A DNA stretch of 64,000 bases from an uncultured Planctomycetota bacterium (GTDB lineage Bacteria; Planctomycetota; Planctomycetia; Pirellulales; PNKZ01). This document shows, in pieces, positions 76 to 60,777 of the stretch. The stretch spans positions 480,288 to 544,287 of the forward strand of contig CAVPTO010000003.1 in the NCBI GenBank assembly GCA_963708675.1, written 5' to 3'. Position numbers and translations under genes: made by a program. Position 1 is the stretch's first letter. Each line of letters begins with the position of its first letter. A model generated the notes under the pieces. It saw only the letters and a list, made by a program, of their open reading frames with translations, ran no database searches and was not told where the DNA came from.

Positions 76-1140
76 ATGAAAATCAGTCGCTCTCGCTTCA
101 TCGCTTGCGGCGTCGGAGTTCTGTTCGGCAGCGTTTCGATCGTCAAAGCGCAGACCACTGCACCGACGGTCGAGGAGATTGCCGCCGAGCGCGTCATTGA
201 AATTCCGTCGTCGAAGCGCACGGGTGAACCGCCCGTCGTCACGGCGCTGGCGATCAGCCCCGATGGCAAGATGATCGCCACCGGAGGCGACGACGGTATT
301 GTGCGCCTGTGGGATCGCGAAACGGTCGAGCTGAAGAACGAGCTGCGAGCGCACACCGACTGGGTGCGTGTCGCACGTTTCGAGCCGAACGGCAAATGGC
401 TTACGACGGCTGGCGACGACCGCCAGGTGCGACTGTGGAACATCGAGACTTCAGAAGGCTACGCTCTGCACAGCGGCCGCGCGTCGACCTACTGCATGGC
501 CATCTCCGCCGACGGCAAGAAACTGATCGAGGCCGGCTTCGACGATAAGATTCGCATTCACGACCTCGTCGAACGCAAGTTGTTGAAAGAGTTCGAAGCC
601 CCTTCGGCCGACATCCGCGCGATCGTCACCTCGCCGACCGTCACGACGGTCGCTGCCGCTGGCCGCAATGGCAAGATTCGCGTCTGGCGTGGTGAAGACC
701 TCACGGCAGGCGGCGACCTGGTGGCTCACCGTCAGCGCGTGCGAGCACTGGCCATCTCGCCGAACAACAAGCTATTGATCTCTGGCGGCGACGATCGCCA
801 GTTGATCGTCTGGGATCTCGACGCCGGGACTGAAGTTTTCCGTCTGCCGATGCGGCCGGCTAAGACTCAGGCACTCGTCTTCTGCGGCGATCGCCTGGTC
901 GCCAGCGGCGGCAGCGACAACGTCATTCGCATTTGGGATCTCGATCTGAAGACCGAGGTCGCCAAGCTCGTCGGTCACACAGGTTCGGTCAGCATGCTCG
1001 AGTACCATCCCACGACGACCGACCTGGTTTCGGCCAGCTTCGATACGTCGGTGCGGATTTGGAAGCTCATGAGCAATGAGAAGTTGAAGCTCGCACGACA
1101 GCATGCGGCTGACGCCACTCAGCCGGCCAGCACGCGGTAG
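76..1140 (+). CDS. Secreted WD40 (beta-propeller) repeat protein
   Basis: ORF 34..1140. The ATG at 76 gives a signal-peptide-like start, MKISRSRFIACGVGVLFGSVSIVKAQ. Seven WD-like units are present: GGDDGIVRLWD, AGDDRQVRLWN, GFDDKIRIHD, GRNGKIRVWR, GGDDRQLIVWD, GGSDNVIRIWD, SFDTSVRIWK. Confidence 0.85.
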   Translation: MKISRSRFIACGVGVLFGSVSIVKAQTTAPTVEEIAAERVIEIPSSKRTGEPPVVTALAISPDGKMIATGGDDGIVRLWDRETVELKNELRAHTDWVRVARFEPNGKWLTTAGDDRQVRLWNIETSEGYALHSGRASTYCMAISADGKKLIEAGFDDKIRIHDLVERKLLKEFEAPSADIRAIVTSPTVTTVAAAGRNGKIRVWRGEDLTAGGDLVAHRQRVRALAISPNNKLLISGGDDRQLIVWDLDAGTEVFRLPMRPAKTQALVFCGDRLVASGGSDNVIRIWDLDLKTEVAKLVGHTGSVSMLEYHPTTTDLVSASFDTSVRIWKLMSNEKLKLARQHAADATQPASTR

Positions 1141-1219
1141 TAGATATGCACGCGTGCCGCACGATGCGGCACGAAACGTCACAACGAACGTTTGCTCGAC
1201 ATCGACACGGAGGTTGCAC

Positions 1220-4200
1220 GTGGGCCTGCTCCAGCTCATGAACCAATGGCGTAGCCGCGGAATGCGCCGCCGCCGTTCTGAAGCGAAGTCCGCCGTCGTC
1301 GCGAACGGCTTCCGCCGTTGTCGCATCGAAGCGCTCGAGTCGCGGCAACTCATGGCCGCCGACCTCTATGCGGGCTCGGTTTATTTCGAGCCAGCCAACG
1401 GCACCGACAGCGTCGGCAATACGTTCACGATCAACTGGCAAGGCGGCGCCACGGGCACCGACATGTCGACGTTGACCATCAACCTCGACAAGAACCAGAA
1501 CGGGTCGATCGACGACGGCGAAGCCTTCTTCAACACCGTGCAAGGCGCGCCGGGCGTTTACGGCGCTACGCCGCTGACGATCCTCAGCCACAGCGGCTTC
1601 ACCGTCGACAGCGCCGTCGTGAGCAACGGCGGTCAGTCGCTCACGTTCACGTTCACCGGTTTCCAAAGCGGCGACACGCTGCAGTTCCAAATCGACGTCG
1701 ATGAGCAAGGCGTCGACGCGCAAGGCAATCAAAGCGTAAGCGCGGTCGTCGAAGGCAAAGAGTTCGAAGGTTCGATCCTCAGCGGTACGTTCACGAACCC
1801 GAACTACTACACCGCCACCGGCAGCGGCATTTATGTCGATGCGTTCAATTCCGAGCTGCAAGCCAGCGGACTCAATCTGCCGCCAGACAGCTACACGGGA
1901 GGCTACTTAAATCCGACCGGCACGACCGACGAAACCGTGTTCACGGCGGGCGTGATGTTCCCGGTCAATCAGATTCCGCTGCCCAGCAGCATCGCGGGCA
2001 ACGTGTCGTATGCGACCAACGGCGCTTGGAACGATCCCAACGCGACTTTCGTCAACATTTCCGGAGTGACGCTGCAACTGCTCGACGCCAACGGCAACGC
2101 AGTGCTCGACTCGAACGGTCACGCGATCACCACCACGACCGACGCCAACGGCAACTACGAGTTCGACAATCTCGGTCCTGGCACGTACCGCGTTCGCGAA
2201 ATCCAGCCGGCCGGTTACCTCGAAGGGGGCGACAAGATCGGTTCGCTCGGCGGCGCGATCGACAACATCGACGAGCTCGGCAGCATCACGGTCGTCGCCA
2301 ACGATCATGGCGTGCACTACGACTTCGTCGAGCAAGTGCCCGCGACCGTCAGCGGCAACGTCTACGTCATCACCAACGGCGATTGCGACGACCCGAACGC
2401 CACGAAGACCGCGATCGCCGGTGTCTCGCTGACGCTCGTCGATTCCAACGGCAACGCGGTGCTCGACGGCAACGGCCATGCGATCACGACCGTCACCGAC
2501 GCCAACGGCCATTACAGCTTCACCGGATTGAACCCCGGAACGTATGGCGTTCGCGAAACCGTGCCTGCCGGCTACATCGTCGGCTGCGATTACGTCGGCA
2601 CCGTCAACGGCACGCCGGTCGGCAGCAAGCCCGACGGCACCGACCTGACGAATATCCAGCTGTTCTCGGGACAGAACGGCATCAACTACAACTTCCACTT
2701 GCTGCTGCCGGTCAACATCTCGGGAACCGTCGACAGCGAAGTGCTCGGCAACTGCGTGGATCCGACCGCTGTCTACACGCCGCTTGCCGGCGTGACGGTC
2801 GTGTTGGTCGACGCTAATGGCAACAACGTGCTCGACGGCAACGGACACGCCATCACGACGGTCACCGACGTGAACGGCCACTACTCCTTCACCAATCTCG
2901 CGATCGGCACTTACGGCGTGCACATGATCATGCCGGCGGGTTACTACCAGGACGAATCGGACGTCGGCACCGTCTTGGGTGTGACGAAAGGCGTTTCGAC
3001 GACTCCGATCGCGCTCGACGACGTGCAGATGTATTCTGGTCAGAGCGGCATCAATTACAACTTCATCGTGCTGCCGCCGCCGAGCATCGCGGGCAAGGTG
3101 ATCTTTAATCAGGATGGCGACTGCGACCCAAGCCAGCCGGGTGTGGCAAACGTCACCGTAAACTTGCTCGACAGCAACGGTCACATCGTGATGACGACCA
3201 CGACCGACGCCAACGGCGAGTACATCTTCAAAGTCGTTCCGCCCGGCACCTACACGGTGCAAGAAATCGTGCCCGGCGGGTATTTGGAAGATGCCGCCCA
3301 CCCAGGGTGCAACGGCGGTGTTGTCATCAACCCGCACACAATCACGCTCGTGGGATTGAATCCCGGCGAGCATCCGGTGAACTACGACTTCTGCATCGAT
3401 CTGCCAGTCGACATCTCGGGCCAGGTGTTCGTGCAATCGAACGCGAACTGCGTCGTTGCGACATCGCTCGCGCCGCTTGCAGGCGTGACGGTCGTTCTTG
3501 TCGATAGCGCAGGCAACCAAGTCTTCGATGGCAACGGAAACGCGATCACCACTGTGACCGCTGCCGACGGCTCGTACTCGTTCAGCGGACTTCGCCACGG
3601 AACTTACGGCGTGCACATCTTGCAGCCGACGGGTTACTACCCTGGTTACTCCAACGTCGGCACGGTCAACGGCCTCACCGACGGCATCTCGACGTCATCC
3701 ATTGCCTTGGACGACGCCTTTCTCAATCAAGGCCAGCACGGCATCCATTACGACTTCGTCGTGCTGCCGCCCGCCACACTCGCCGGCAAAGTGATCTTCA
3801 ACACCGACGGCACCTGCGACCCGACGACCGAGCCAGGCGTGCCGAACGTGACCGTCAACTTGCTCGACGCCAACGGCAACGTTGTCGAAACGACGACCAC
3901 CGACGCGAACGGCCTATACTCGTTCACGCTCATTCCGCCGGGAACGTACACCGTGCAGGAAGTTGTGCCGGGCGGGTTCTTTGAACAGGCCGCCCACTTG
4001 GGATGCAACGGCGGTGTGATCCTCAATCCGCACACGATCACGCTCGTCGGCCTCAACCCCGGCGACCATCCGGTCAACTACGACTTCTGCATCATGACGC
4101 TGGGCACGATCAGCGGCTTTGCATTTCAAGATGGCAGCAACATTCAATTTGTCGGCGGCGACACGGTTACGTCACTCAGCCAGATTCCAGCGTCGTTGCT

Positions 4201-5689
4201 TGCGTCGCACGACGGCAAGCGCACGTCGGACGACACGATGCTCGCTGGCGTCGTCGTCACTTTGGCCGACGCCAACGGCGTTCCGCTGCACGACTCGCAC
4301 GGCAACCTGATTCAAACCACGACCGACGCCAACGGCCACTACATCTTCAAAAACTTACTGCCCGGGTCGTACACCGTCCTCGAAGGCGGCGCCGGCGGTT
4401 ACTTCCAGTGGATCAACACGCCAGGCAGCACCGGCGGCAACGCACCTTATTTGGGCAATGTCATCAACTCCGTCACGCTGACCGCCGGACAGAACTCGGT
4501 CGAAAACGATTTCAGCTTCGTGCGAGCGTCGAACTTCAGCTTCTTCCTGCCATTCAGCAACGTACTGCCGCCGCCGAATCCGACCTACGTGCTGCCGCAG
4601 AACCCGTATCTCGTGAATCCGCTACCGCAGGTGCTCGCGCCGAACCCGCAAAATCCGATCCCGCAGGGTAGCGGCGCCGACGGCTACACGTGGCACTTGA
4701 GCGTTATCAATGCCGGTCAGCCGCGCCAGTTGCAAAGCTTCGGCGACGCGGTCGCGCAGTTCACTGCTGCGGGCGTCGACATCGAAGGTTGGGCCAACGG
4801 TGCGCTCAAGGGTTCGACCTGGAAGTTGCGAACGCAAGGCGACGACGGCGACGAGATCATCACGTCGGTCACGTTCGGCATGATGGGTGGCCTGCCAGTG
4901 ACGGGCGACTTCGATGGCGACGGCCGCACCGACGTCGGTGTCTTCCTGCGAGGGCAGTGGTTCATCGACCTCAACGGCAACGGCTACTGGGACAACGAAG
5001 ACTTGTGGGCCAAGCTCGGCTATCAAGACGACCTGCCCGCGACCGGCGACTGGGACGGCGACGGCAAGACCGACATCGGCATCTTCGGCCGTGCCTGGCC
5101 GGGCGACCCGAACCACATTCACCACGAGCCCGGTCTGCCGCATCCCGACAACACGCGTCAAGGCCGACACAAGAACGTGCCGCCGCGTCCCGACCAGGCG
5201 ACGCACGGTGTGCGAACGATGCAACGCTCGAGCACGGGCAAGATGCGGGCCGACCTCATCGACCACGTGTTCCATTACGGTGTGCCAGGCGACATGCCAA
5301 TCGCCGGCGCTTTCAACGGGTCGGGCATCGACACGATCGGTGTCTTCCGCGATGGCCAGTGGCACCTCGACATCGACGGCGACGGCCGCTTCCAGCGCAG
5401 CGACCTGATGATCAGCATGGGCCAAGCCGGCGACATCCCGGTCATCGGCGACTTCAATGGTGACGGCATCGACGAGCTTGGCGTCTACCGCCAAGGCACG
5501 TGGTTGATCGACCTCAACGGCGATCACCAGATCGACGACGCCAACGACATGATCGTGGACTTCGGTGGACCGGCCGACCGACCGATCGTCGGCGACTGGG
5601 ACGGCGACGGCCGCGACGACATGGGCGTTTACCAAGAAGGCGTGAGCGACGACGGCGTAGCCGCGGCGCCGCAAGGCGATTTGAAATAG
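1220..5689 (+). CDS. Giant secreted repeat protein: 7 Cna-B/SdrD-B-like units followed by an FG-GAP/VCBS-type C-terminal module
   Basis: Long ORF 1103..5689. GGAGG at 1209-1213 precedes an in-frame GTG at 1220 (ATG alternatives at 1238 and 1262). The leader reads RRRRSEAK..RIEALESRQLMAAD. Seven ~110-120 aa units carry D(A/S)NGN..LD.NGH.ITT.TDANG.Y.F..L.PGTY.V.E..P.GY. The last ~330 aa carry GDFDGDGRTDVGVF, GDWDGDGKTDIGIF, GDFNGDGIDELGVY and GDWDGDGRDDMGVY motifs. Confidence 0.85.
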   Translation: MGLLQLMNQWRSRGMRRRRSEAKSAVVANGFRRCRIEALESRQLMAADLYAGSVYFEPANGTDSVGNTFTINWQGGATGTDMSTLTINLDKNQNGSIDDGEAFFNTVQGAPGVYGATPLTILSHSGFTVDSAVVSNGGQSLTFTFTGFQSGDTLQFQIDVDEQGVDAQGNQSVSAVVEGKEFEGSILSGTFTNPNYYTATGSGIYVDAFNSELQASGLNLPPDSYTGGYLNPTGTTDETVFTAGVMFPVNQIPLPSSIAGNVSYATNGAWNDPNATFVNISGVTLQLLDANGNAVLDSNGHAITTTTDANGNYEFDNLGPGTYRVREIQPAGYLEGGDKIGSLGGAIDNIDELGSITVVANDHGVHYDFVEQVPATVSGNVYVITNGDCDDPNATKTAIAGVSLTLVDSNGNAVLDGNGHAITTVTDANGHYSFTGLNPGTYGVRETVPAGYIVGCDYVGTVNGTPVGSKPDGTDLTNIQLFSGQNGINYNFHLLLPVNISGTVDSEVLGNCVDPTAVYTPLAGVTVVLVDANGNNVLDGNGHAITTVTDVNGHYSFTNLAIGTYGVHMIMPAGYYQDESDVGTVLGVTKGVSTTPIALDDVQMYSGQSGINYNFIVLPPPSIAGKVIFNQDGDCDPSQPGVANVTVNLLDSNGHIVMTTTTDANGEYIFKVVPPGTYTVQEIVPGGYLEDAAHPGCNGGVVINPHTITLVGLNPGEHPVNYDFCIDLPVDISGQVFVQSNANCVVATSLAPLAGVTVVLVDSAGNQVFDGNGNAITTVTAADGSYSFSGLRHGTYGVHILQPTGYYPGYSNVGTVNGLTDGISTSSIALDDAFLNQGQHGIHYDFVVLPPATLAGKVIFNTDGTCDPTTEPGVPNVTVNLLDANGNVVETTTTDANGLYSFTLIPPGTYTVQEVVPGGFFEQAAHLGCNGGVILNPHTITLVGLNPGDHPVNYDFCIMTLGTISGFAFQDGSNIQFVGGDTVTSLSQIPASLLASHDGKRTSDDTMLAGVVVTLADANGVPLHDSHGNLIQTTTDANGHYIFKNLLPGSYTVLEGGAGGYFQWINTPGSTGGNAPYLGNVINSVTLTAGQNSVENDFSFVRASNFSFFLPFSNVLPPPNPTYVLPQNPYLVNPLPQVLAPNPQNPIPQGSGADGYTWHLSVINAGQPRQLQSFGDAVAQFTAAGVDIEGWANGALKGSTWKLRTQGDDGDEIITSVTFGMMGGLPVTGDFDGDGRTDVGVFLRGQWFIDLNGNGYWDNEDLWAKLGYQDDLPATGDWDGDGKTDIGIFGRAWPGDPNHIHHEPGLPHPDNTRQGRHKNVPPRPDQATHGVRTMQRSSTGKMRADLIDHVFHYGVPGDMPIAGAFNGSGIDTIGVFRDGQWHLDIDGDGRFQRSDLMISMGQAGDIPVIGDFNGDGIDELGVYRQGTWLIDLNGDHQIDDANDMIVDFGGPADRPIVGDWDGDGRDDMGVYQEGVSDDGVAAAPQGDLK

Positions 5690-5718
5690 CCGCCACGGCG
5701 ACGTTGATTTTTCGCAAC

Positions 5719-5744
5719 GTTAGCCGCGTCGCTTGCGACGCGCT
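5719..5744. repeat. 26-nt GC-rich element GTTAGCCGCGTCGCTTGCGACGCGCT (single arm with internal GCGTCGC-TT-GCGACGC hairpin)
   Basis: Lies 30 nt after the stop of the 1220..5689 gene. The identical 26-mer forms both arms of the palindrome at 62768..62823. Confidence 0.7.
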
Positions 5745-5767
5745 TTGGGCGGTTATGTAATTGAATT

Positions 5768-5899
5768 AACCCCTCTCCCTTCGGGAGAGGGTGGCGGCGC
5801 AGCCGCCGGGTGAGGGCGGGTTGAAATAGAACGCGCCTACCAATTCAACCCGCCCTCATCCGCCGCTTCGCGGCACCTTCTCCCGGAGGGAGAAGGATT
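5768..5899 (+). repeat. ~130 bp multi-hairpin intergenic element, copy A
   Basis: Module order: CCCTCTCCC-ttcg-GGGAGAGGG, GGCGGC-gca-GCCGCC, GGGTGAGGGCGGGTTGAA..TTCAACCCGCCCTCATCC, GCCGC-ttc-GCGGC, CCTTCTCCC-ggag-GGGAGAAGG. It sits downstream of the stop at 5689. Confidence 0.85.
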
Positions 5900-6200
5900 T
5901 GAATCGTCACTCACGAATCAACACCAATTGCATTCATCGCGCGATATTCTTCGCGCATCTTGCGCCACCCTCAGGGTCGCATGCAGGCGAAATATTTTTC
6001 GCAATCCGATTGGACTCCCTAAAGTTTTCAACATACTTTTGTGATGCCGCTCGCGGAACGCTCGTTCCGGGTCGGCTCGAAAGTGCTGCTCGACTGGGTC
6101 GAGCGAACAAACGCCAAACCTTATCTCTACGGCGTTGTCGCGCGGCTGAGCAGCTCTATAATCGATTTCACCATTGCGATTGCACCTGGGAGTCATCTGT

Positions 6201-7437
6201 ATGTTCGTTCTTGCGCATGCGCGATTCTCGCGCGTTGTTCCGAAACTCTTCGGCCTCGCTCTTCTTTATTCGTTCGGCAGCACCGCATCGGCGCGCGTTG
6301 TCAACGATCCGCTTCAGCAAACGGCTCGCGTCAGTGCGCCGTTCGATCTCACGCTGCTTGAAGCACAACTGCCGCCTACGAACGAGCCGCTCGTTCCGGC
6401 GAGCTTCCCCGCACCATTGCGTGCCGCCGCCAAGGCGCATTACTGCAGCGGTGGCGAGACGGTTCCGTATGCGTGGCATCTGAGCGTCATCAACGGCGGC
6501 AACCCGCGCGGCGCGTTCACATCCGTGAGTGCATCGAACGACAATCATCCCAGCTTTCCGTGGCCCGAACGCGCAGTTCAATCAAGGACGCTTCGTGTTC
6601 AAGCCGTTAGGTGAGCACAGCAGCGAACAAACGATCGCACTCGGAACGCGTGACGGGATTCCAGTCTCGGGCGATTTCAATGGCGATGGCGTCGACGAGC
6701 TCGGCTTGTTCGTCAGCGGACAATGGTTCATCGACATCAACGGAGACGGCCGCTGGGATGACCAGGATCTGTGGGCACGGCTGGGCAAGGCCGGAGATCT
6801 TCCGGTCGTCGGCGATTGGGACGGCGACGGCAAGGCCGACATCGGGGTCTTCGGCCGCAGTTGGATGGGCGACACTCGCGCCGTCGATATCGAGCCAGGC
6901 TTGCCCGATGCCGACAACCGTCGCGAGGGCATGAAGAATTCGCCGCAGACGCACGTCCGCACGGTCGGCTATCGCATCCTTCGCAATACCGCGGGTGGCG
7001 ACTCGCGCACTGATGGCATCGACCATGTGTTCCAATTCGGTGCAGGCAGCGACATGCCGATCGTTGGCGACTGGAACGGCGACGGCATCGACAACATCGG
7101 CATCTTCCGCCGTGGTCACTGGGTGCTCGACATGGACGGCGATGGTCGCTTCACCGCCAACGACCGTGTGTTCCAGTTCGGCGATGAAGACGCTATGCCC
7201 GTCATCGGCGACTTCAACAGCGACGGCCTGGACGAGATCGGCGTGTATCGCCGCGGCGAGTGGACTCTCGATGCCGATGGCGATCGTCGGTCAAGCGAAG
7301 GCGATCTGCGCTTCACCTACGGCGAAGTCCACGATCTGCCTGTAGTCGGCAACTTCGACGGCGGTAATTTCGAAGGCAGCGGCTCACCGCGCTTCGGCGT
7401 GTACAGCCCGACGGTTGCTAACGACCGGAAGCTCTAG
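6201..7437 (+). CDS. FG-GAP/VCBS repeat protein, paralogue of the C-terminal module of the 1220..5689 gene; frame interrupted as assembled (pseudogene or assembly indel)
   Basis: ORF 6174..6614 holds a GGGAG Shine-Dalgarno, an ATG at 6201 and the signal peptide MFVLAHARFSRVVPKLFGLALLYSFGSTASA. Its YAWHLSVINGGNPRG matches YTWHLSVINAGQPRQ of the big protein. The homology continues in the +1 frame in ORF 6529..7437 (AQFNQG.., GDFNGDGVDELGLF, GDWDGDGKADIGVF). A stop at 6526-6528 in the second frame places the shift between 6529 and about 6556. Confidence 0.65.
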
Positions 7438-7545
7438 AAACTCTGTCGCACTCGAGTTCGGCTCTCCCAGGGGCCGAGCGCAATGGGGCGATCGCGGCGC
7501 TCGTGGCGCCGCGATCGCTTTTTTTGTTGGCGCTGTTCCCCTCTC

Positions 7546-7657
7546 CCCTTGCGGGAGAGGGGCTAGGGGTGAGGGGGATTGGATGCGTGTACACGCGTCG
7601 CCCCTCACCCGGTTCGTCTTCGACGAACCACCCTCTCCCGCAAGGGGAGAGGGTTTT
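7546..7657 (+). repeat. Multi-hairpin intergenic element, divergent copy B
   Basis: Hairpins: CCCCTCTCCCC-ttgc-GGGGAGAGGGG, GGGGTGAGGGGG..CCCCTCACCC, GGTTCGTC-ttc-GACGAACC, ACCCTCTCCC-gcaa-GGGGAGAGGGT. It lies between the convergent stops at 7437 (+) and 7661 (-). Confidence 0.75.
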
Positions 7658-7660
7658 GCA

Positions 7661-7831
7661 TCACGACCCCTTCAACTTCTCTAACTCCGCGGCAGTCTCG
7701 CTGATCTCTTTCTCGAGACGCCGCACTTCTTCCGGCTCGTCGGTCTGCTTCTTCACACCCGCCAACTGCAGACGCAACTTCTGCAGGCGTTGCTGAAGCA
7801 GGTCCATGCGTTTCTTAACCTTCTTGTCCAT
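7661..7831 (-). CDS. Small coiled-coil protein (hypothetical)
   Basis: ORF 7661..7852. The ATG at 7831 gives MDKKVKKRMDLLQQRLQKLRLQLAGVKKQTDEPEEVRRLEKEISETAAELEKLKGS, a heptad-like charged helix. It lies directly downstream of the membrane-protein gene on the same strand. Confidence 0.5.
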   Translation of the reverse strand: MDKKVKKRMDLLQQRLQKLRLQLAGVKKQTDEPEEVRRLEKEISETAAELEKLKGS

Positions 7832-8405: not shown

Positions 8406-9668
8406 CTAGCCGCGTCGTTCATTGACGAACTCGATCGCTTCGTCCTTCGATCGCAGCAGACCGTCGAGTTGCGCATCGCGCGCCGCCTGCAACAACTCCG
8501 CGTACTCACGTCCCGGCGAAATGCCGAGCGTCGCAAGGTCGTCGCCCGTCACGAGAGGCGGTGGGTCAAGCTGCTCGTGGGGCAGTTGCAGTTTCTGTCG
8601 ACAAAACTCAACGGCGGTGCGTTCGACGTTCGGCCGTGCCGAGTGCCAGTCGACGAGTTCGTAAGCCGGCTCGGCGGTCAACACCGGTTGAATGCGCGAC
8701 CACGGCAACGTTTCGGCGTGTTCGAGATCGCGACGGCGTCTGAGCAGCCAAGACACGCGACGATGTTCATCGTTCGACAAGCGAAGCCGTCGACGCACCG
8801 ACGACCACTGACGTTCGAGAGATGCAGGATCGAGTGTGCTCGCCTCGCCAAGTAGGCACGCGATCACCAAGGCGAAACTGGCATTTGGCAGCGCGGCGAT
8901 AACATCCATCGTGAGCGTCCAAGCGGCGTCGTCCATCGTGGCTTCGGGCAACGTGGCTGCAAGTAGACCCGTCTCGCGCAGTATTTCCAACGCTCGGCGT
9001 CGCTGATCGAGTGCAAGCATCAATCGCAGTTCTTGCGCAATGCGCTCTGCGCTGATTTCGTTGATCTCGCCTGCCATGATGCGCAGCGCCGACGCAGTGG
9101 GCTCGTCGATCGCGAAATCGAGCGTCGTTGCCATACGCACGGCGCGCAGCATCCGCAGCTTGTCTTCGGTGAAGCGCTCGCGAGGATCGCCAATCGCGCG
9201 CACGACGCGTCGTTCGAGATCGTCGCGACCGCCGACGTAGTCGATCACGCGTTGATCGATCGGATCGAAAAACAATCCGTTGATCGTGAAGTCGCGACGC
9301 CGGGCATCGTCCTCGGGCGATCCGAACGACACGCTCTCGGGGCGGTGACCTTTGCCATAGCGCTCGTCGCAGCGAAACGTCGTCACCTCGACCATGCCTT
9401 GCTTGCGGCTGCCGATGACGGCGATCACGCCGAACGCGGCGCCGATGGCAAGCGTGCGACGTGTGCCGAACACCTCCTGCACGGCTGGCGGCAGGGCGTT
9501 GGTCGCGACGTCGTAATCCTTCGGGCGACGGCTGAGCAGATGATCGCGCACGCATCCGCCGGCCCAAAGCGCCTCGAACCCGCGCTCGCGCAGACGTCGC
9601 ACCACGTCCAGCGCGAACGAGCGTTGCTCGTCGGGATCGAGTTGTGATGGTTGCGATGTTCGCTGCAT
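8406..9668 (-). CDS. cca: tRNA nucleotidyltransferase (CCA-adding enzyme) / poly(A) polymerase family protein
   Basis: GGCVRDHLLSRRPKDYDVAT head-domain motif plus RDFTINGLFFD. The ATG at 9668 (MQRTSQ..) is preferred over the TTG at 9698. Confidence 0.85.
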   Translation of the reverse strand: MQRTSQPSQLDPDEQRSFALDVVRRLRERGFEALWAGGCVRDHLLSRRPKDYDVATNALPPAVQEVFGTRRTLAIGAAFGVIAVIGSRKQGMVEVTTFRCDERYGKGHRPESVSFGSPEDDARRRDFTINGLFFDPIDQRVIDYVGGRDDLERRVVRAIGDPRERFTEDKLRMLRAVRMATTLDFAIDEPTASALRIMAGEINEISAERIAQELRLMLALDQRRRALEILRETGLLAATLPEATMDDAAWTLTMDVIAALPNASFALVIACLLGEASTLDPASLERQWSSVRRRLRLSNDEHRRVSWLLRRRRDLEHAETLPWSRIQPVLTAEPAYELVDWHSARPNVERTAVEFCRQKLQLPHEQLDPPPLVTGDDLATLGISPGREYAELLQAARDAQLDGLLRSKDEAIEFVNERRG

Positions 9669-9704
9669 AAGTAGCCGAGCTTTGAGGGATCGCCCCAACG
9701 CTCG

Positions 9705-12696: not shown

Positions 12697-12780
12697 AACC
12701 GCGGGGAGCGCAGAGGACGCGGAGACGGCGGAGAGAATGAGCCACGGCTGAACACGGATTTCCACAGATAAGAGAAAGCT
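12697..12780. repeat. Mosaic short-module repeat (CGCGGAG/CGCAGAG and CCACAGAT modules), partial copy
   Basis: aaccgcggggagcgcagaggacgcggagacggcggagag...cacggatttccacagataagag. The same modules occur at 16870..17160 and 23090..23352. Confidence 0.6.
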
Positions 12781-16869: not shown

Positions 16870-17160
16870 GGAGGAAACCACGGAGGCACGAAGGGCGAAA
16901 CCGAAGAGTTGACCGCGGAGGTCGCGGAGAACGCAGATGAATGAGGGAAGGAACCACAGATGCACACGGATGAACACAGATAAGAGAGATGCAGGAATCA
17001 AAGTCGATAATTGTTTCTTCTGATTCATCTGTGGAAATCGGTGTGCATCTGTGGTTCATTTCTTTGCGGCTGTTTTTCGTGTTGCAATCCGTGCCTTCGC
17101 GCCTCCGTGGTCGTTTTCTGAGATTGAACTCTGCGAGCTCTGCGTTCTCTGCGGTTCGTT
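16870..17160. repeat. Mosaic inverted-repeat region built from short modules around an AT-rich centre
   Basis: AACCACGGAGGCACGAAGG (16876) pairs with CCGTGCCTTCGCGCCTCCGTGGT (17089). AACCACAGATGCACAC (16951) pairs with GTGTGCATCTGTGGTT (17041). GCGGAG/GCAGAG modules occur on both sides. Confidence 0.7.
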
Positions 17161-17166
17161 TTTGAA

Positions 17167-17209
17167 GGGGTTATTGCGCGAGAACCCGTGTCTATAGGGT
17201 GCGCAATAA
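17167..17209. repeat. 43 bp element containing palindrome TTATTGCGCG..GCGCAATAA
   Basis: ggggTTATTGCGCGAGAACCCGTGTCTATAGGGTGCGCAATAA. The exact reverse complement is present at 23043..23085. Confidence 0.85.
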
Positions 17210-23042: not shown

Positions 23043-23085
23043 TTATTGCGCACCCTATAGACACGGGTTCTCGCGCAATAACCCC
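23043..23085. repeat. 43 bp palindrome-containing element, exact reverse complement of 17167..17209
   Basis: TTATTGCGCACCCTATAGACACGGGTTCTCGCGCAATAAcccc. Confidence 0.85.
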
Positions 23086-23089
23086 GTCT

Positions 23090-23352
23090 GAATTGAACCA
23101 AAAAGAACGCAGAGGTCGCAGAATTCAATCCCAGAATACAACCACGGAGTCACGGAGACACGGAGTACAACACGAAGAACAGCCACTAGGAAATCAACCA
23201 CAGATGCACACAGATTTACACAGATGAATTTCAAAAAAGGAATTCAATCGCACCCCCATCTCTCCTCACTTATCTGTGTTCATCCGTGTGCATCCGTGGT
23301 TTTTTTCTGACTGCTCTCGCTCTTCTCCGCGACCTCCGCGTCCCCTGCGGTT
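23090..23352. repeat. Mosaic inverted-repeat region (same module family as 16870..17160)
   Basis: Left side: gaacgcagaggtcgcag, caaccacggagtcacggagacacggag, caaccacagatgcacacagatttacacagatgaa. Then an AT-rich centre. Right side: cttatctgtgttcatccgtgtgcatccgtggtt and ctccgcgacctccgcgtcccctgcggttaa. 23035-23227 is about 80% identical, without indels, to the reverse complement of 17025-17215. Confidence 0.75.
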
Positions 23353-23869: not shown

Positions 23870-23912
23870 CAACCACAACTACGGAGGGCTCAACAAAAAA
23901 CCGCCTCGGCCT

Positions 23913-23980
23913 GCTTAGCCGACGCGTCCACGCGACGGTCTCCGGGTTGTGGACAACCCGGCTAAGCGGCTTTGAAACAC
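23913..23980 (+). repeat. Structured three-way-junction repeat, copy 1
   Basis: Outer stem GCTTAGCC/GGCTAAGC encloses hairpins CCGACGCG-tcca-CGCGACGG and CCGGGTTG-tgga-CAACCCGG. The second copy is at 33018..33087. Confidence 0.75.
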
Positions 23981-32909: not shown

Positions 32910-33017
32910 GTTGTTTTGATCTCCTGAAGTGTGTTGCGACGAACGATGGCGGATGCAAATCTCAGACCGCCATTTTTCAATCGTCGCTTAGAAGGAGTTT
33001 CGGAAACTGGTTCGCTC

Positions 33018-33087
33018 GCTTAGCCGCCCCGTCCACGGGGCGGAATCCGGGTCGTGGACGACCCGGCTAAGCAGGTTCTAAAACACC
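33018..33087 (+). repeat. Structured three-way-junction repeat, copy 2
   Basis: GCTTAGCC..CCGCCCCG-tcca-CGGGGCGG..CCGGGTCG-tgga-CGACCCGG..GGCTAAGC. Relative to copy 1, the differences keep base pairing. It sits about 120 nt upstream of the 33205 cassette. Confidence 0.75.
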
Positions 33088-33204: not shown

Positions 33205-34299
33205 ATGAAGGTCATCTCGCAACTCATTCGGCATTTCTGGCAGAGCGGCTCGCTGACGGCCGACGATGTCGAGTATCTGCTCCGCCACGGCTTCGCGCGG
33301 CAGAAGGACTTCCCTGGCTACCGCAAGGCGAAGCGACTGCCGGCGGTCGACCCGTGCGATGCTGACACTACCCCGAGCAAGCCGGCCGAGCCCCCGTCGC
33401 CGCTCGAGCACGTCGAAGAGTCGCTGGTCCGTCGTGCACTGCCAGGTCGCGGCGCGCCGAGCCGTCGAGGCCGCGCGGCATCGTCGGCCAAAGAGATCAA
33501 GATCGAAGACGTCTGCCAGCATGTTCGCGAGTTGTTCGACCGCCGGGCCGCCCATCTGCCAAGCCTCGTGCAGTTGGCCGGGTCCAATCAAGGCGACGAT
33601 TGGAAGGACTCGCTGATCGCGCTGCACAGCCTGCCGCAGCCGCGCGTCGAGCAGCTTTTGATTGAAGCGCTCGAACAGCGCAACAGCAATATCGAAGCGC
33701 TGTGGAACGCACTCGATCCCGAGCCGTTCGTGCTGCTGGCAAACACGCCGTCGTGGAAAGGCTCCGCGTGCAGCGCGTTCTCGGCCCTCGTTTCGTCCCC
33801 CGACTCGGCATCGCTCGGACGTTACAAGTGGATTCTCAAGTATCCCGAGCTGTGCGATCTGGCGAACATGCTTTACGTCTGGCGGCAGTTCTTGTGCGCG
33901 ATCGGCGGCGTCTACCGCGACGAACGTCCGCTGCTGACGCGCTCGCTCAAAACGGTGCGCGACCCGGTCGTGGTGTGGTCGTTCGTCCTGCTTTACAACG
34001 CGGCGCATCTGCACGACATCGAGAACCGTGCCGGTCGGCCGGAGTATGGCCCGCTCGACTTGCCCACGCACGACGTCTGGCGCTGCGCCTGGAATAGCGC
34101 CTTGATGATCGACTCGGCGACGATGTCGCCGTATCTGGCGGCTTGTTACTCGGTGCAATCGCCCGACGCCGACCCGATCGAGACGTGCCAATGTCCGATC
34201 ATGTGCCCCGATGGCTGGCGCGTGCCGGGCCCGCTGCGCCCGCATCCAATGGGTTCGACCGCAACGGATTCAACGACCGCAACAACAGGGGTGAGTTGA
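33205..34299 (+). CDS. Hypothetical protein, lead gene of the AAA+/vWA cassette
   Basis: 364 aa ORF with a GGAAGGA Shine-Dalgarno 5 nt before the ATG. I recognise no motif in it. Its TGA overlaps the next ATG (TGATG at 34297-34301). Confidence 0.6.
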   Translation: MKVISQLIRHFWQSGSLTADDVEYLLRHGFARQKDFPGYRKAKRLPAVDPCDADTTPSKPAEPPSPLEHVEESLVRRALPGRGAPSRRGRAASSAKEIKIEDVCQHVRELFDRRAAHLPSLVQLAGSNQGDDWKDSLIALHSLPQPRVEQLLIEALEQRNSNIEALWNALDPEPFVLLANTPSWKGSACSAFSALVSSPDSASLGRYKWILKYPELCDLANMLYVWRQFLCAIGGVYRDERPLLTRSLKTVRDPVVVWSFVLLYNAAHLHDIENRAGRPEYGPLDLPTHDVWRCAWNSALMIDSATMSPYLAACYSVQSPDADPIETCQCPIMCPDGWRVPGPLRPHPMGSTATDSTTATTGVS

Positions 34300-35321
34300 T
34301 GTCGACCGACGGCGAACGCATGGTCGAGACGGTGACGCTGAACCAGGCTCGCGAATTGATTCAGTGTCTCGCCGCGCAGCAAAGCATTCTGCTGCTGTCC
34401 CCTCCGGGAATGGGAAAGTCGGACATTGTTCATCAGGCGGCGGCCGAGGCGAAGCTGCCGTGTCGCTCGCTGTTGGGAACGCAGATCGCGCCGGAGGACG
34501 TGAGCGGCATTCCGCGCATCATCGGCGAACGCTCGGTCTTCTGTCCGCCGCGAATCTTGTTGCCCGAGAAGCCCGAACCGTTCTGCTTGTTTCTCGACGA
34601 GATGCCCGCCTGCACGCCCGACGTGCAAAAGGCCTTCTACTCGCTGTTGCTCGAGCGACGCATCGGCGAGCATCGCCTGCCTGCCGGCACCTGGGTTGTC
34701 GCGGCGGGAAACCGCACCGAGGATCGCGCGCTGGTGCGAACCATCTCCAGTGCGCTGGTCAATCGCGTCATCATCCTGCACGTGCGTGTCGACGTCCCCG
34801 AGTGGCTCGATTGGGCGGCCCGCGCTCGAGTGCGACCTATCATTCGCGAATACATTCGTGTTTGTCCCGATGCGCTGTTGCGGCCAGTTCCACGCACGCC
34901 GGTCCCGTTCTCGACGCCACGCGCGTGGGCGTCGCTGTCGCGAGCCTTAGATCTCGCCGAACAGGCTGGCATTCTCGATCACGAAATCATGGTGGCCTTG
35001 GCGGCGGGGCGGGTTTCGGATGTCGACGTTGACCCGATCGTCGCATGGCTGAAGGCCGATGGTCCCACCGATCATGCTCCGCCGCGCACCGTGCCACGCA
35101 CGCTGCTCGTGATGTCGATCGACGACCTGGAACTGTCAGTGCGTGCGACCAACATTCTGCAAAGCGAAGGCATCAACACGGTCGGCGAGCTGATCATCCG
35201 CACGCGTGAGGAACTCATGGCGATGCGCCATTGCAATGAGACGGCACTGCAATCGATCGTTGATGGCTTGGCCGCTCATGGACTGTCATTGGCCCCCAGC
35301 ACGACGACCACGATCATCTAA
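34299..35321 (+). CDS. MoxR-type AAA+ ATPase fused to an RNA polymerase alpha-subunit C-terminal-domain-like (HhH) module
   Basis: Walker A LLLSPPGMGKSDIV, Walker B FCLFLDEMPA, and VVAAGNRTEDRA. The C-terminus MSIDDLELSVRATNILQSEGINTVGELIIRTREELMAMRHCNETALQSIVDGLAAHGLSL matches the alpha-CTD consensus pattern. Confidence 0.8.
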   Translation: MSTDGERMVETVTLNQARELIQCLAAQQSILLLSPPGMGKSDIVHQAAAEAKLPCRSLLGTQIAPEDVSGIPRIIGERSVFCPPRILLPEKPEPFCLFLDEMPACTPDVQKAFYSLLLERRIGEHRLPAGTWVVAAGNRTEDRALVRTISSALVNRVIILHVRVDVPEWLDWAARARVRPIIREYIRVCPDALLRPVPRTPVPFSTPRAWASLSRALDLAEQAGILDHEIMVALAAGRVSDVDVDPIVAWLKADGPTDHAPPRTVPRTLLVMSIDDLELSVRATNILQSEGINTVGELIIRTREELMAMRHCNETALQSIVDGLAAHGLSLAPSTTTTII

Positions 35322-35338: not shown

Positions 35339-36367
35339 ATGCTTCGCATGTCGGACCGCACCGTGACGCTCGGCCAGGCGAAGTCGCTGCTCAAGAGCAT
35401 GGCCCACGATCAAAGCCTGCTCCTGCTGTCGCCTCCCGGCATGGGCAAGTCCGAGATCGTTCACCAGGCGGCGGCCGAGGCGGGCTTGCCGTGCCGTTCG
35501 CTGCTAGGAACGCAGATCGCGCCCGAGGACGTGAGCGGCGTGCCGCGGATCGTCGGCGAACGCTCGGTTTTCTGCCCGCCGCGTGTGCTGTTGCCCGAGT
35601 CGCCCGAGCCGTTCTGCCTGTTTCTCGACGAGTTGCCCGCCTGTCCGCCTGACATTCAGAAGGCGTTCTACGCGCTGCTGCTCGAGCGGCGGCTGGGCGA
35701 GCATCCGCTTCCGAAGGGGACGTGGGTCGTCGCTGCCGGCAACCGCGCCGAGGACAACGCGCTCGTGCGTTCGCTCAGTTCCGCCCTCGTTAATCGACTG
35801 TTCACGATTCACTTGCGTGTCGACACGAAGCAGTGGCTCGTGTGGGCGAAGAACGCCGGTGTGAGGCCCGACATTCTCTCGTACATCGTGTACATGCCCA
35901 GCGCCTTGATGCGCCCCGTGCCTCGCGTGCCGACGCCGTTCTCGACGCCGCGAGCGTGGACGTCGTTGTCGCGATCGCTGACGTTGGTCGAGCAATCGGG
36001 CAAGCTCACCAACACCACTCGTCGCGCGTTAGCCTTCGGCAGCATCAGCTCCGACGACGCCGCCATCTACTGCGCCATGGCCGAAGAAAATCTCGGCGAG
36101 CTTTTGCCGATCGAAGAGTACTTTGCCGATCCCGACGCCGTTCCGTCGGCCGACACGGCCCGATGGTTCATCATCCACCGCATTCGACAGCTCGTCGGGC
36201 GTAACGAGTTTCCGGCGTCCATCACTCCGCAAGAAGTGAACGGCTTTCTCAGCTATCTGCCGCAGGAGTTCAGCTTCGCGTTGATGGTCGATCTCGTCGA
36301 TCAATGGGCGCGGCTGGGTGCGTCGCCGGCAATGCTCAACTCGCTGAAGGAAATCACCGGGCTATGA
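35339..36367 (+). CDS. MoxR-type AAA+ ATPase, tandem paralogue without the alpha-CTD module
   Basis: Walker A LLLSPPGMGKSEIV, Walker B FCLFLDELPA, and VVAAGNRAEDNA. About 80% nucleotide identity to 34380-35000 by eye. Alternative ATG at 35348. The stop overlaps the next start (ATGA at 36364-36367). Confidence 0.8.
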   Translation: MLRMSDRTVTLGQAKSLLKSMAHDQSLLLLSPPGMGKSEIVHQAAAEAGLPCRSLLGTQIAPEDVSGVPRIVGERSVFCPPRVLLPESPEPFCLFLDELPACPPDIQKAFYALLLERRLGEHPLPKGTWVVAAGNRAEDNALVRSLSSALVNRLFTIHLRVDTKQWLVWAKNAGVRPDILSYIVYMPSALMRPVPRVPTPFSTPRAWTSLSRSLTLVEQSGKLTNTTRRALAFGSISSDDAAIYCAMAEENLGELLPIEEYFADPDAVPSADTARWFIIHRIRQLVGRNEFPASITPQEVNGFLSYLPQEFSFALMVDLVDQWARLGASPAMLNSLKEITGL

Positions 36368-41728: not shown

Positions 41729-41808
41729 GCGTGGATTTCTCGGTGAGTGACACAGTGGAGGTACGGATTGCTTATAGGTGTCGAGGCGTGTGAATTCAAG
41801 ATGCTTAC

Positions 41809-41937: not shown

Positions 41938-41958
41938 TTGAATGGCAGTCGGCGATCG

Positions 41959-44377: not shown

Positions 44378-44390
44378 TGATGTGATTCGA

Positions 44391-54363: not shown

Positions 54364-54369
54364 GCTATA

Positions 54370-54526: not shown

Positions 54527-54535
54527 CGCAATATG

Positions 54536-60028: not shown

Positions 60029-60041
60029 CTGGACAGAAAAC

Positions 60042-60170: not shown

Positions 60171-60173
60171 AGA

Positions 60174-60754: not shown

Positions 60755-60777
60755 GCATCGCAACCTCCAACAAAAAG

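Follow-up and report, generated by a model that had tools for sequence, protein, structure and literature searches.

Multi-hairpin intergenic elements of a Pirellulales planctomycete are paired, hairpin-linked variants of the BoxC/PIT/TMECO DNA repeat

The multi-hairpin elements that lie between genes in the 64,000-nucleotide stretch analyzed here (the window) are a planctomycete version of a DNA repeat described in E. coli as BoxC or "potential intrastrand triplex" (PIT). In each of them, two BoxC/PIT/TMECO-type units face one another as an inverted pair. Neither Watson-Crick pairing nor RNA accounts for the strand-specific GNA loops of these units or for their mirror-repeat third strand, and a fold in single-stranded DNA suits the evidence better than an RNA terminator or a translation switch. 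We give a probability of roughly 0.6 to the reading that these are structured DNA repeats of the BoxC/PIT/TMECO class in inverted pairs, that the constraint on them acts on single-stranded or underwound DNA and not on the transcript, and that the copies are selfish or near neutral.

A first-pass annotation of this DNA had described seven copies sharing an ordered set of hairpins named H1, H1b, H2, H3, and H4. Using an nhmmer profile built from six copies, we matched exactly seven loci in the window and none besides. All are intergenic, and all lie where the annotation had placed them or a few bases off. The named hairpins are present, as are the H3 variants that had been reported: copy C reads GGCC-ttc-GGCC, and copy B reads GGTTCGTC-ttc-GACGAACC. 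The hairpin motif was observed 15 times in the window against a shuffled expectation of 0.05, and another motif 12 times against 0.58. The elements end in AACCCCTCTCCC and GGGAGAAGG-NTTYGAATC. They also generate spurious ORFs, as had been claimed; for example, the ORF extension at 60174-60773 reads ...LLPLGEGAAKRRMRAGG.... The seven copies, with the parts of copy A, are as follows.

5764 to 5906, plus strand: copy A, full element, an inverted pair of triplex-type units with a conserved 3' tail, ATTTGAATC; 78 nt past the stop codon of a 1528-aa SdrD/FG-GAP protein.
5771 to 5791, plus strand: left unit duplex of copy A (H1), with pyrimidine arm CCCTCTCCC, loop ttc, and purine arm GGGAGAGGG.
5792 to 5807, plus strand: left linker of copy A (H1b), T plus GGCGGC-gca-GCCGCC, including GCGCAGC (which fits GCGNAGC) on the purine strand.
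5808 to 5816, plus strand: left third strand of copy A, GGGTGAGGG, which makes an allowed purine-motif triad with GGGAGAGGG at 9 of 9 positions and doubles as the 5' base of H2.
5817 to 5852, no strand assigned: center of copy A, an extra 9-bp inverted repeat, CGGGTTGAA / TTCAACCCG, with a variable 18-nt loop.
5853 to 5896, minus strand: right unit of copy A, CCTTCTCCC-tcc-GGGAGAAGG, T plus GCC-GCGAAGC-GGC, and GGATGAGGG, with 9 of 9 triads; the plus strand here holds the 3' base of H2 together with H3 and H4.
7539 to 7663, plus strand: copy B, a weak profile match, of the divergent subfamily; left unit CCCCTCTCCC-cttgc-GGGAGAGGGG-cta-GGGGTGAGGG with a classic 3-nt second loop, central palindrome GCGTGTACACGC, and a right unit with a 20-nt hairpin linker; flanked by a canonical terminator (7485-7527) on one side and by the stop of a small minus-strand ORF (7661-7831) on the other.
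41806 to 41946, plus strand: copy C, between the stop of a minus-strand spoU-type methylase gene (41959) and the start of a minus-strand Ldh_2 gene (41728); left unit decayed, with 7 of 9 triads.
44382 to 44525, minus strand: copy D, occupying the convergent spacer between a GH88 stop (44377) and the stop codon of a minus-strand amidohydrolase gene (44520-44522); 9 of 9 triads in both units.
54364 to 54527, minus strand: copy E, occupying the spacer from the stop of the upstream minus-strand ORF (54536-54538) to the polX GTG (54363); a 21-nt insertion in the H1b linker gives an enlarged left linker of 37 nt (54464-54500) that folds as a longer hairpin.
60037 to 60176, plus strand: copy F, occupying the convergent spacer from the topA stop (60028) to the stop of minus-strand acpS (60174); left pyrimidine arm lost, one mismatch in the right hairpin.
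60618 to 60761, plus strand: copy G, between the stop of minus-strand trpS (60778) and the start of minus-strand acpS (60557 or 60593); left unit with 8 of 9 triads and one hairpin mismatch.

Read on the purine strand, each unit runs from a 9-nt pyrimidine arm through a short loop to the complementary 9-nt purine arm and then, after a linker, to a 9-nt purine "third strand" that is the mirror of the purine arm. The half-units have the form CCYTCTCCC-N3-5-GGGAGARGG (given for all 14, though copy F has lost its left pyrimidine arm). The right-hand unit type, CCTTCTCCC / GGGAGAAGG, is one position off the literal BoxC consensus, but the change is compensated. The published TMECO-class consensus is CCCTCNCCC-N3-6-GGGNGAGGG-N3-GGGNGAGGG (PMC4666352), and the window units fit the BoxC/PIT consensus except in the length of the second loop. 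A T and a small hairpin with a GNA loop (GCGNAGC) replace the 3-nt second loop of E. coli BoxC. We found this hairpin linker, 12 to 20 nt long apart from the enlarged left linker of copy E, in both units of six copies and in the right unit of copy B. Because the 3-nt second loop (cta) occurs only in the left unit of copy B, we file the elements as a BoxC variant and not as plain members of that family. Long linkers form a hairpin in 52 of 52 unique cases, with T as the first base in 47. The purine strand carries CGNAG in 32 of 56 genome linkers (among the matches listed), 34 of 62 viral linkers, and 5 of 5 window linkers; the complementary strand carries it in only 1 (among the matches listed), 3, and 0, respectively. 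As DNA, GCGNAGC is an extraordinarily stable, nuclease-resistant mini-hairpin; hairpins with TTC loops are ordinary (PMC13037366).

The left half of copy B (window positions 7537-7576) has matches of 90 to 95% identity over about 40 nt in 2240 of 5426 E. coli genomes (E=2e-5; ~92%). Among these matches is one in the nrdA-nrdB spacer that shares even the CTTGC of loop 1. The family is present in many phyla, including Pirellulales and Isosphaeraceae among the matches listed, and in >120 viral contigs. Single units numbered 47 and pairs about 34 in the cross-phylum sample, again among the matches listed. The string "Planctomyc" is absent from the text of Holder et al. 2015 (PMC4666352).

The third strand obeys the rules of a purine-motif triplex. 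With the third strand placed antiparallel to the purine arm, we allowed the triads G*G:C, A*A:T, and T*A:T. Inward 9-mers in the window gave 9 of 9 triads (7 to 8 of 9 in decayed copies), and outward controls gave 4 to 7 of 9. Of 290 Y9/R9 hairpins in the window and 114 genome loci, 135 had a perfect third strand downstream, compared with 5 in a mirrored control; these counts are among the matches listed and come from a genome-collection scan whose pattern already contained part of the motif. Chance coding matches in that scan (e.g., the histidine-kinase motif AALTHRLLAFSRRQ) were removed by requiring the hairpin. The pattern used for viral contigs left both covarying positions free. It returned 162 unique units, 98 with G/G, 63 with A/A, 1 with A/G, and 0 with G/A (Fisher 1e-44), a change of C:G*G to T:A*A. 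The pyrimidine arm covaries too in the viral contigs, where CCC accompanied G/G 87 times and CCT accompanied A/A 53 times. Rarer compensated variants, such as GGGGGAAGG with GGATGGGGG, are present, and independent ones are few. The association of duplex with third strand is mainly one of two common haplotypes and could partly reflect descent from two ancient lineages, not repeated compensation.

Watson-Crick pairing is maintained as well. In an alignment of eight sequences, 91.5% of cells are paired in the five-hairpin structure, compared with ~51% when partners are slid, and six pairs show changes in both partners; none of 500 shuffles reached that level. These six double-sided changes bear out the pairing-preserving variation that the first-pass annotation had seen in the small hairpins. 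Its ordered set of five hairpins holds up; the minimum-free-energy fold, however, is not serial but a three-way junction in which H1 and H4, which are mutually complementary, form a 21-bp outer closing stem. The element thus has terminal inverted repeats in the style of a MITE. Folding is equally stable on the two strands (-96.7 and -94.7 kcal/mol, z about -9.7), and copies C, F, and G contain uncompensated, disruptive mutations. H2 carries a G.T / A.C mismatch in every case. This constant G.U column arises because each third strand matches its own duplex rather than the opposite third strand. In inward pairs with different duplexes, the third strand fits its own duplex in 17 of 17, and the two third strands are fully complementary in 0 of 17. 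Thus, where Watson-Crick pairing in H2 and the triplex rule are at odds, the triplex rule prevails. The 18-bp H2 stem of the A-type copies would compete with triplex formation.

The runs GGG-AGA-GGG ... GGG-TGA-GGG might also be read as an intramolecular G-quadruplex whose long loop would be the linker hairpin. There are four G3 tracts and a fifth in the left unit, and classic BoxC (G3-AGA-G3-TTA-G3-TGA-G3) is a textbook G-quadruplex motif. However, the equally common right-type unit (GGGAGAAGG ... GGATGAGGG) loses two of its four G3 tracts by paired G-to-A changes, which keep triad isomorphism and not a three-tetrad quadruplex. The complementary pyrimidine arm, which a quadruplex does not need, is always there, and for the E. 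coli motif both circular dichroism (CD) and NMR pointed to a triplex (PMC4666352). We rejected this scarcely credible reading because the paired G-to-A changes break the G-tracts.

Occupancy by these elements changes between relatives. At the trpS-acpS spacer (one orthologous site, with no control set), a genome with a 97% identical TrpS has a B-type element in place of the window's A-type copy G; the flanks are conserved, and the right junction is common to both genomes. A syntenic genome at 82% has no triplex unit in the 21-kb locus, and unrelated palindromes occupy the same spacers. Such variation between close relatives would suit a nonautonomous mobile element of the REPIN or MITE kind, an inverted pair moved by a transposase encoded elsewhere (RAYT/HUH-type or other), with the triplex-like features as recognition signals or incidental. 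So would a dispersed multicopy family with subfamilies, and an inverted-dimer build with mutually complementary ends like those of REPINs and the terminal inverted repeats of MITEs. The copies on viral contigs could be carried between hosts, and folded single-stranded DNA is the substrate of HUH transposases (PMC3733652, PMC6006769). Yet the marks of transposition were not found on the window elements. There are no target-site duplications: the best direct matches between flanks averaged 6.1 of 8 within a copy, compared with 5.7 of 8 between the flanks of different copies. The GTAG or CGTC tag was not found at the ends of these palindromes (PMC3733652), and none of the 28 ORFs scanned within the 64-kb window encodes a transposase. 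The unit is near-identical from E. coli to Pirellulales, whereas REPs are species specific, and the shared right junction at trpS-acpS fits replacement or conversion better than independent insertion. Holder et al. (PMC4666352), moreover, saw no link between the E. coli elements and mobile elements. We therefore regard transposase-driven movement as distinctly unlikely. As a separate observation, CGTC-type tagged palindromes occur elsewhere in the window (pair I22) and in L119. We know of no autonomous IS related to the repeats described here.

An RNA-level role was the first interpretation of these elements. If they were RNA cis elements, transcribed 3' hairpins would terminate transcription, protect mRNA from exonucleases, insulate convergent genes, and sequester the Shine-Dalgarno-like GGGAGAAGG at polX. 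This is an unlikely reading, although several observations speak for it. A stop codon stands beside all seven copies, about 0 to 100 nt away with our own gene models, in agreement with the first-pass annotation. Three copies fill convergent spacers, also as claimed (B, D, and F), with copy B counted only because of the small unannotated ORF at 7661-7831 (minus strand). The folds are very stable on either strand, with pairing kept by compensatory changes, and T-rich tails follow two of the element ends. The palindromes in the same spacers of the 82% relative look as if a hairpin were wanted and could mean that some hairpin is useful there. REPs and BoxC have been reported to be transcribed, and REPs to stabilize mRNA (PMC3738161, PMC3733652).

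Adjacency to gene 3' ends, true for 7 of 7 window copies, does not stand as a bias. It is expected for any intergenic element, and the probability that all seven fall outside divergent spacers by chance is about 0.30 in the window. In the cross-phylum sample (among the matches listed), there was no enrichment by spacer type (p=0.29), for convergent spacers, or towards the stop codon (23 of 41). All these position statistics are rough because our home-made gene caller, crude in its cross-phylum calls, mis-calls some genes (e.g., the poly(A) polymerase at 8406-9698). Orientation relative to transcription is unbiased too, with 2 forward, 2 reverse, and 3 convergent copies in the window and 11 versus 8 across phyla (among the matches listed). 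In a scan for terminators (a loose hairpin plus T-run), only 2 of 14 element ends passed, and totals were not above those of shuffles. Thus, the role as terminator or stabilizer that had been proposed is not supported: the likeness to Rho-independent terminators lies in GC-rich hairpins just past stop codons, but 12 of 14 ends lack a U-tract, both orientations are used, no position bias holds across phyla, and copy B already sits behind a genuine canonical terminator. RNA pairing explains neither the strand specificity of the GNA loops nor the mirror-repeat third strand, and the uncompensated mutations in several copies also count against the RNA reading. Rfam gave 0 matches at the gathering threshold over the window and, below it, only generic miRNA-precursor hairpins. 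Purine-motif triplexes do not form in RNA, and BoxC/PIT elements had no promoter or terminator activity in E. coli in earlier work cited by Holder et al. 2015 (PMC4666352).

The suggestion that copy E gates translation of polX was right about the arrangement. The GGGAGAAGG arm sits 7 nt upstream of the polX GTG, and this start is credible because Pfam HHH_8 aligns from residue 1. The gate function itself is unsupported, as is the RNA-regulator reading as a whole; an incidental RNA effect at individual loci is possible. The elements should not be annotated as terminators or small RNAs (sRNAs), and the spurious ORFs and N-terminal extensions that they produce deserve attention in annotation.

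Under the preferred reading of a structured DNA repeat, the third strand would run antiparallel along the hairpin's major groove, forming the G*G:C, A*A:T, and T*A:T triads, with the GNA-capped mini-hairpin of the linker serving as a rigid turn. In facing units, the third strands could also pair with each other (H2), and the outer hairpins are complementary to one another, so that a quasi-palindrome of ~130 bp would be able to extrude as a long hairpin or cruciform. The constraint would be felt while the DNA is single-stranded or underwound, in the course of replication, repair, or supercoiling driven by transcription. Copies would accumulate and turn over in insertion-tolerant spacers while individual copies decay. 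Candidate routes of spread are a structure-recognizing enzyme acting in trans and recombination or conversion between copies. We infer that the triplex and mini-hairpin fold forms in vivo, as we infer the manner of spread. In the in vitro work of Holder et al. 2015, only the isolated single strand formed a stable triplex, and in vivo dimethyl sulfate (DMS) footprinting has so far yielded no evidence of an intramolecular triplex (PMC4666352).

A bolder proposal, which we offer tentatively and hold to be doubtful, is that the selected phenotype is a single-stranded DNA "paperclip" (hairpin, GNA mini-hairpin turn, and purine third strand) recognized either by a conserved factor of replication, repair, or priming or by a structure-specific mobilizing enzyme yet to be discovered. 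If it were true, three-strand covariation across phyla and phages would prove, by comparative genomics, that living bacteria form intramolecular DNA triplexes and that these matter to them. Three aspects of the family are new: its reach, which takes in viral contigs as well as Planctomycetes and many other phyla; a common form with a DNA-specific mini-hairpin instead of a short second loop; and a third strand that follows triad rules even at the cost of a Watson-Crick pair. Published triplex searches would miss the mini-hairpin-linker form because their loops are limited to 6 nt or less. With the wider family, the mini-hairpin form, and the triad rule, the statement that the triplex is what is conserved therefore becomes testable.

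Among known systems, the REP/BIME/REPIN repeats (RAYT) resemble the window elements as short, GC-rich, high-copy intergenic palindromes, often head-to-head dimers that fold into larger hairpins. They too are common downstream of genes, with different families in the same spacers of related genomes. The window elements differ from them in the missing GTAG/CGTC tag, in sequence conservation across phyla, and in the mirror-repeat third strand, and we saw no RAYT accompanying them in the 64 kb. Hairpin MITEs (Correia/NEMIS, ERIC, RUP, and Nezha) are likewise about 100 to 150 bp long, with terminal inverted repeats and a variable center, and are intergenic or cotranscribed; our elements differ in lacking a target-site duplication and in that the units also occur singly.

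BoxC/PIT/TMECO repeats of E. coli and other Proteobacteria were reportedly the subject of earlier work by Bachellier and by Hoyne and Maher (2000). To our knowledge, no function has been assigned to them in the roughly 30 years since they were recognized. Rhizobial RIMEs and Caulobacter CIRs may be the same kind of repeat. The window elements share with BoxC/PIT/TMECO the block order and a near-same sequence, CCCTCTCCC-loop-GGGAGAGGG-loop-GGGTGAGGG, as well as strictly intergenic placement, no strand or gene-class bias, frequent inverted pairs, and, at the one orthologous site compared, a locus that differs between close relatives. Their host is a Pirellulales planctomycete, as opposed to E. 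coli or another proteobacterium, and their linker-bearing units fall outside the published consensus and the 1- to 6-nt loop limit of ITxF. They add a second unit type (CCTTCTCCC / GGGAGAAGG / GGATGAGGG) paired with the classic type, and the A-type copies add the 9-bp central stem and a conserved tail of ~10 nt. GNA-capped mini-hairpins are stable only as DNA, bind SSB poorly, and occur in single-strand initiation signals of phages and plasmids (PMC13037366). Homopurine/homopyrimidine mirror symmetry, as in H-DNA, and GNA-capped mini-hairpins, as in GCGNAGC DNA, are joined here in one dispersed multicopy unit.

Repeat finding in the window recovered the copies as direct and inverted repeats of 130-144 nt with 84-94% identity. 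A six-copy profile searched against the 64-kb window matched seven loci and nothing else, in agreement with the seven-copy family described in the first-pass annotation. Of two diagnostic motifs, one occurred 15 times where shuffles predicted 0.05, and the other 12 times where they predicted 0.58. We placed the copies relative to genes by Pfam and ORF analysis, and the distances from stop codons claimed earlier were correct.

Copies of the element in the window (profile search) and their gene context
5764-5906, + strand: copy A, 78 nt past the stop codon of the gene for a 1528-aa SdrD/FG-GAP protein
7539-7663: copy B (divergent), with a canonical terminator (7485-7527) on one side and the stop codon of a small ORF, 7661-7831 (-), on the other
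41806-41946, + strand: copy C, between a SpoU-type methylase stop and an Ldh_2 start, both genes (-)
44382-44525, - strand: copy D, between the convergent stops of GH88 and amidohydrolase genes
54364-54527, - strand: copy E, flanked by the stop codon of an unannotated ORF and by the polX GTG
60037-60176, + strand: copy F, between the convergent stops of topA and acpS
60618-60761, + strand: copy G, flanked by the stop codon of trpS and the start codon of acpS

Several features adjoin these copies in the window, whose G+C is 61%. Copy A lies between a giant surface-type protein (1103-5689; seven SdrD_B/SpaA/CarboxypepD_reg repeats plus FG-GAP-like repeats), which accounts for repeat families D1, D3, D4 and D6-D11 of the window, and a smaller FG-GAP paralogue (6529-7437). 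About 50 nt past the FG-GAP gene stop and directly ahead of copy B is a textbook intrinsic terminator (7485-7527, +; 17-bp stem GGGGCGATCGCGGCGC...GCGCCGCGATCGC, then TTTTTTTGTT). Thus, canonical terminators exist in this genome, and they do not look like the elements. The small ORF at 7661-7831 (-) (MDKKVKKRMDLLQQRLQKLRLQLAGVKKQTDEPEEVRRLEKEISETAAELEKLKGS, coiled-coil-like) is below the 100-aa cut-off, and its stop codon overlaps the copy B tail. As anticipated, translated elements generate spurious coding sequence: the longest acpS ORF, 60174-60773 (-), is lengthened by about 70 codons of copy G (…LLPLGEGAAKRRMRAGG…), with 60557 or 60593 as the probable true start. Genes adjoining these repeats may be over-extended in automatic annotation.

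All of the hairpins previously described (H1, H1b, H2, H3 and H4) were present, as were the H3 stem variants of copies B and C, and the insertion in copy E was confirmed at 21 nt. To score this five-hairpin structure, we aligned the six A-type copies (the main subfamily, with hairpin linkers) with two Pirellulales relatives. Paired cells made up 91.5%, compared with about 51% in slid controls, and six pairs were doubly changed, a number that 0 of 500 shuffles equaled; the variation does preserve pairing. Folded to minimum energy, however, the element forms not five separate hairpins but a three-way junction, which a 21-bp H1xH4 stem closes. Folding is equally strong on the two strands (-96.7 and -94.7 kcal/mol, z ~ -9.7), which makes the whole element a quasi-palindrome. 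One G.T position (A.C on the opposite strand) is constant in H2.

The elements had been proposed to work in RNA, by terminating or stabilizing transcripts or by gating translation. The hairpins and preserved pairing fit such a role, and that structural description stands. However, no Rfam family matched the window at its gathering threshold, and matches of lower score were limited to generic miRNA-precursor hairpins. Mutations without compensation are present in copies C, F and G. Of 14 element ends, only 2 passed a loose terminator scan, not above shuffles, which argues against terminator function. The adjacency to gene 3' ends holds in the window but not as a bias: with about 29 tandem, 8 convergent and 7 divergent spacers, seven intergenic elements would all miss the divergent ones with a chance of about 0.30, and the four copies in tandem spacers are two forward and two reversed relative to transcription. 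Among the cross-phylum matches listed, with crude gene calls, the spacers holding elements were tandem in 41 cases, convergent in 17 and divergent in 7, against 313/85/66 in the background (P = 0.29); the upstream stop was nearer in 23 of the 41 tandem cases, and single units lay 11 times on the coding and 8 times on the template strand. Thus, the proposed RNA functions are not supported. For translation of polX, the Pfam HHH_8 alignment begins at residue 1 (N terminus (M)TNVDIAAIFD), so that 54363 (GTG) is credible as the start codon. A purine run ahead of it is literally there, GGGAGAAGG ending 7 nt upstream; in the relative with 82% identity, a different palindrome without an obvious purine run directly precedes the polX start.

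Each half of the element can be read as a unit of pyrimidine arm, loop, purine arm, linker (second loop) and purine third strand. The left unit, on the plus strand, is CCCTCTCCC-ttc-GGGAGAGGG-[TGGCGGCgcaGCCGCC]-GGGTGAGGG; the right unit, on the minus strand, is CCTTCTCCC-tcc-GGGAGAAGG-[TGCCGCgaaGCGGC]-GGATGAGGG. Within intact window units, the 9-mer that faces inward always gives allowed triads (G*G:C, A*A:T or T*A:T) with its own hairpin at 9 of 9 positions, compared with 4-7 of 9 for outward control 9-mers. Across the listed genome loci and the window, a perfect third strand followed within 40 nt downstream of 135 of 290 perfect 9-bp pyrimidine/purine hairpins; the mirrored upstream control gave 5. 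The common unit types, C:G*G (CCCTCTCCC / GGGAGAGGG / GGGTGAGGG) and T:A*A (CCTTCTCCC / GGGAGAAGG / GGATGAGGG), differ by a triple change. We also scanned viral contigs independently, with a pattern free at both purine positions. The 162 unique units among the matches listed comprised 98 G/G, 63 A/A, 1 A/G and 0 G/A (Fisher ~1e-44, on counts that ignore kinship and an association that is mostly two haplotypes). The pyrimidine arm followed the purines (CCC with G/G 87 times, CCT with A/A 53 times), and rarer variants among the matches listed were likewise compensated, e.g., GGGGGAAGG with GGATGGGGG. Watson-Crick pairing cannot account for the mirror symmetry of the two purine blocks. Most tellingly, in the 17 listed inward-facing pairs with two different duplexes (13 sources), each third strand matched its own duplex in 17 of 17, and in 0 of 17 were the third strands fully complementary to each other. 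In these sequences, the triad rule prevails over Watson-Crick pairing of H2 where the two conflict, which explains the constant H2 mismatch. A G-quadruplex reading fails, since two G-tracts are lost to the paired G-to-A changes.

In viral contigs of IMG/VR, triplex-type units are also common (>120 contigs among the matches listed, loci L123-L242, e.g., L137, L143, L187 and L191), and some contigs have 4-5 units in about 14 kb. These contigs may be true phage DNA or prophage host flanks.

Among the matches listed, second loops were either short (2-5 nt) or long (about 10-22 nt), a bimodal distribution. Of the unique long linkers of perfect units, all 52 fold as hairpins (2-9 bp, many stem sequences), 47 begin with T, and 28 carry a C-GNA-G loop, GAA in 22 of these. 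The purine strand, which is the triplex-forming one, carried CGNAG in 32 of 56 genome and 34 of 62 viral linkers (matches listed) and in 5 of 5 from the window; its complement carried CGNAG in 1, 3 and 0, respectively. The loop is strand specific. As DNA, the "mini-hairpin" motif GCGNAGC is exceptionally thermostable (Tm 76.5 °C for 7 nt), resists nucleases and serves poorly as an SSB substrate, whereas hairpins with a TTC loop are ordinary (PMC13037366). In the window, the linkers of right units A, D, F and G contain GCGAAGC, and those of left units contain GCGCAGC. The linker would be a rigid DNA turn that brings the third strand back to the hairpin. The long-linker form would have escaped the published triplex search, whose loop lengths were limited to 1-6 nt (PMC4666352).

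We then compared orthologous sites. In L116, a metagenomic contig with 97% TrpS identity, the trpS-acpS spacer has conserved flanks and holds a B-type element (the copy B-like subfamily; 2430-2545), with the classic CCG second loop on one side, in place of A-type copy G. The right junction is shared, and L116 has an extra 16 nt at one junction. The syntenic Pirellulales contig L119 (82% TrpS identity) keeps the gene order trpS..acpS/topA..polX, but we found no triplex unit in its 21-kb syntenic locus. Its acpS/topA and pre-polX spacers, orthologous to those of copies F and E, are filled with unrelated palindromic repeats.

REP-like palindromes in L119
10964-11035, 12452-12554 and 18072-18187: GGCGACGACAAGTCGTCGCC pairs, GGGCAGACAAGAATGTCTGCCC pairs and GTGCCACTGGCTTTGCCAGTGGCAC pairs

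Therefore, on one or two sites and no control set, these spacers appear to be landing or retention sites for palindromic repeats generally, with an occupant that seems to change quickly. The flanks of the window copies lack target-site duplications, which argues against their being MITEs. Against a REP/REPIN origin, the elements carry neither a GTAG nor a CGTC tag, and no transposase was found among 28 window ORFs scanned; a RAYT may be encoded elsewhere in the genome.

The window holds other repeats. Two 196-nt arms (17014-17209 and 23043-23238; 85% complementary) flank a 5.8-kb block of sucD, sucC, a PAS sensor, a LuxR-type response regulator and an enolase-superfamily gene, with no transposase inside; further copies lie at 12732-12769, 16944-17060 and 23188-23301, the shorter ones rich in CACAGAT/ATCTGTG words. 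A 32-nt palindromic repeat, CGCAACGTTAGCCGCGTCGCTTGCGACGCGCT, occurs as inverted copies (5713-5744, just upstream of copy A, and 62798-62829; 94% complementary); it contains CGTC and resembles CGTC-tagged REPs. A 59-nt palindromic intergenic repeat (CGCTTAGCCG...GGGTCGTGGACGACCCGGCTAAGC) forms an inverted pair 9 kb apart (23910-23968 and 33017-33075). Similarity between the adjacent paralogues 34143-35321 and 35339-36367 (300 nt at 83% and 101 nt at 70% identity, offset 1,031 nt) indicates a tandem gene duplication.

The best-supported mechanism is a constraint that would act on the structure of single-stranded DNA, in what may be a selfish or near-neutral repeat. When we searched one genome per species with the right half of the element, at least 114 loci matched; those listed come from Alpha-, Beta- and Gammaproteobacteria, Cyanobacteria, Chloroflexi, Ignavibacteria, CPR lineages, Isosphaeraceae and Pirellulales. 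The recurring module at the listed loci is CCCTCATCC, a variable hairpin and ACCTTCTCCC-loop-GGGAGAAGG, singly or in inverted pairs around a variable center. Escherichia coli BoxC, which was later found again as PIT (potential intrastrand triplex) and given the name TMECO, reads CCCTCNCCC-N3-6-GGGNGAGGG-N3-GGGNGAGGG, and its isolated strand forms a purine-motif triplex in vitro (Holder et al. 2015, PMC4666352). It is always intergenic, without strand bias, sometimes in inverted pairs; earlier work saw neither promoter nor terminator activity, and it marks variable loci (PMC4666352), with which the change of occupant at our one or two compared sites agrees. By its sequence, the window element consists of two such units in inverted arrangement. 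The copy B left unit has a 3-nt second loop, as in classic E. coli BoxC, and matches E. coli at 90-95% identity over about 40 nt in 2,240 of 5,426 complete genomes; with the nrdA-nrdB spacer, it shares even the first loop, CTTGC. Thus, the elements belong to the pan-bacterial BoxC/PIT family, as its planctomycete representative. The kind of repeat is known; the paired form with a mini-hairpin linker in a planctomycete host, of which we found no description in the literature searched, is new.
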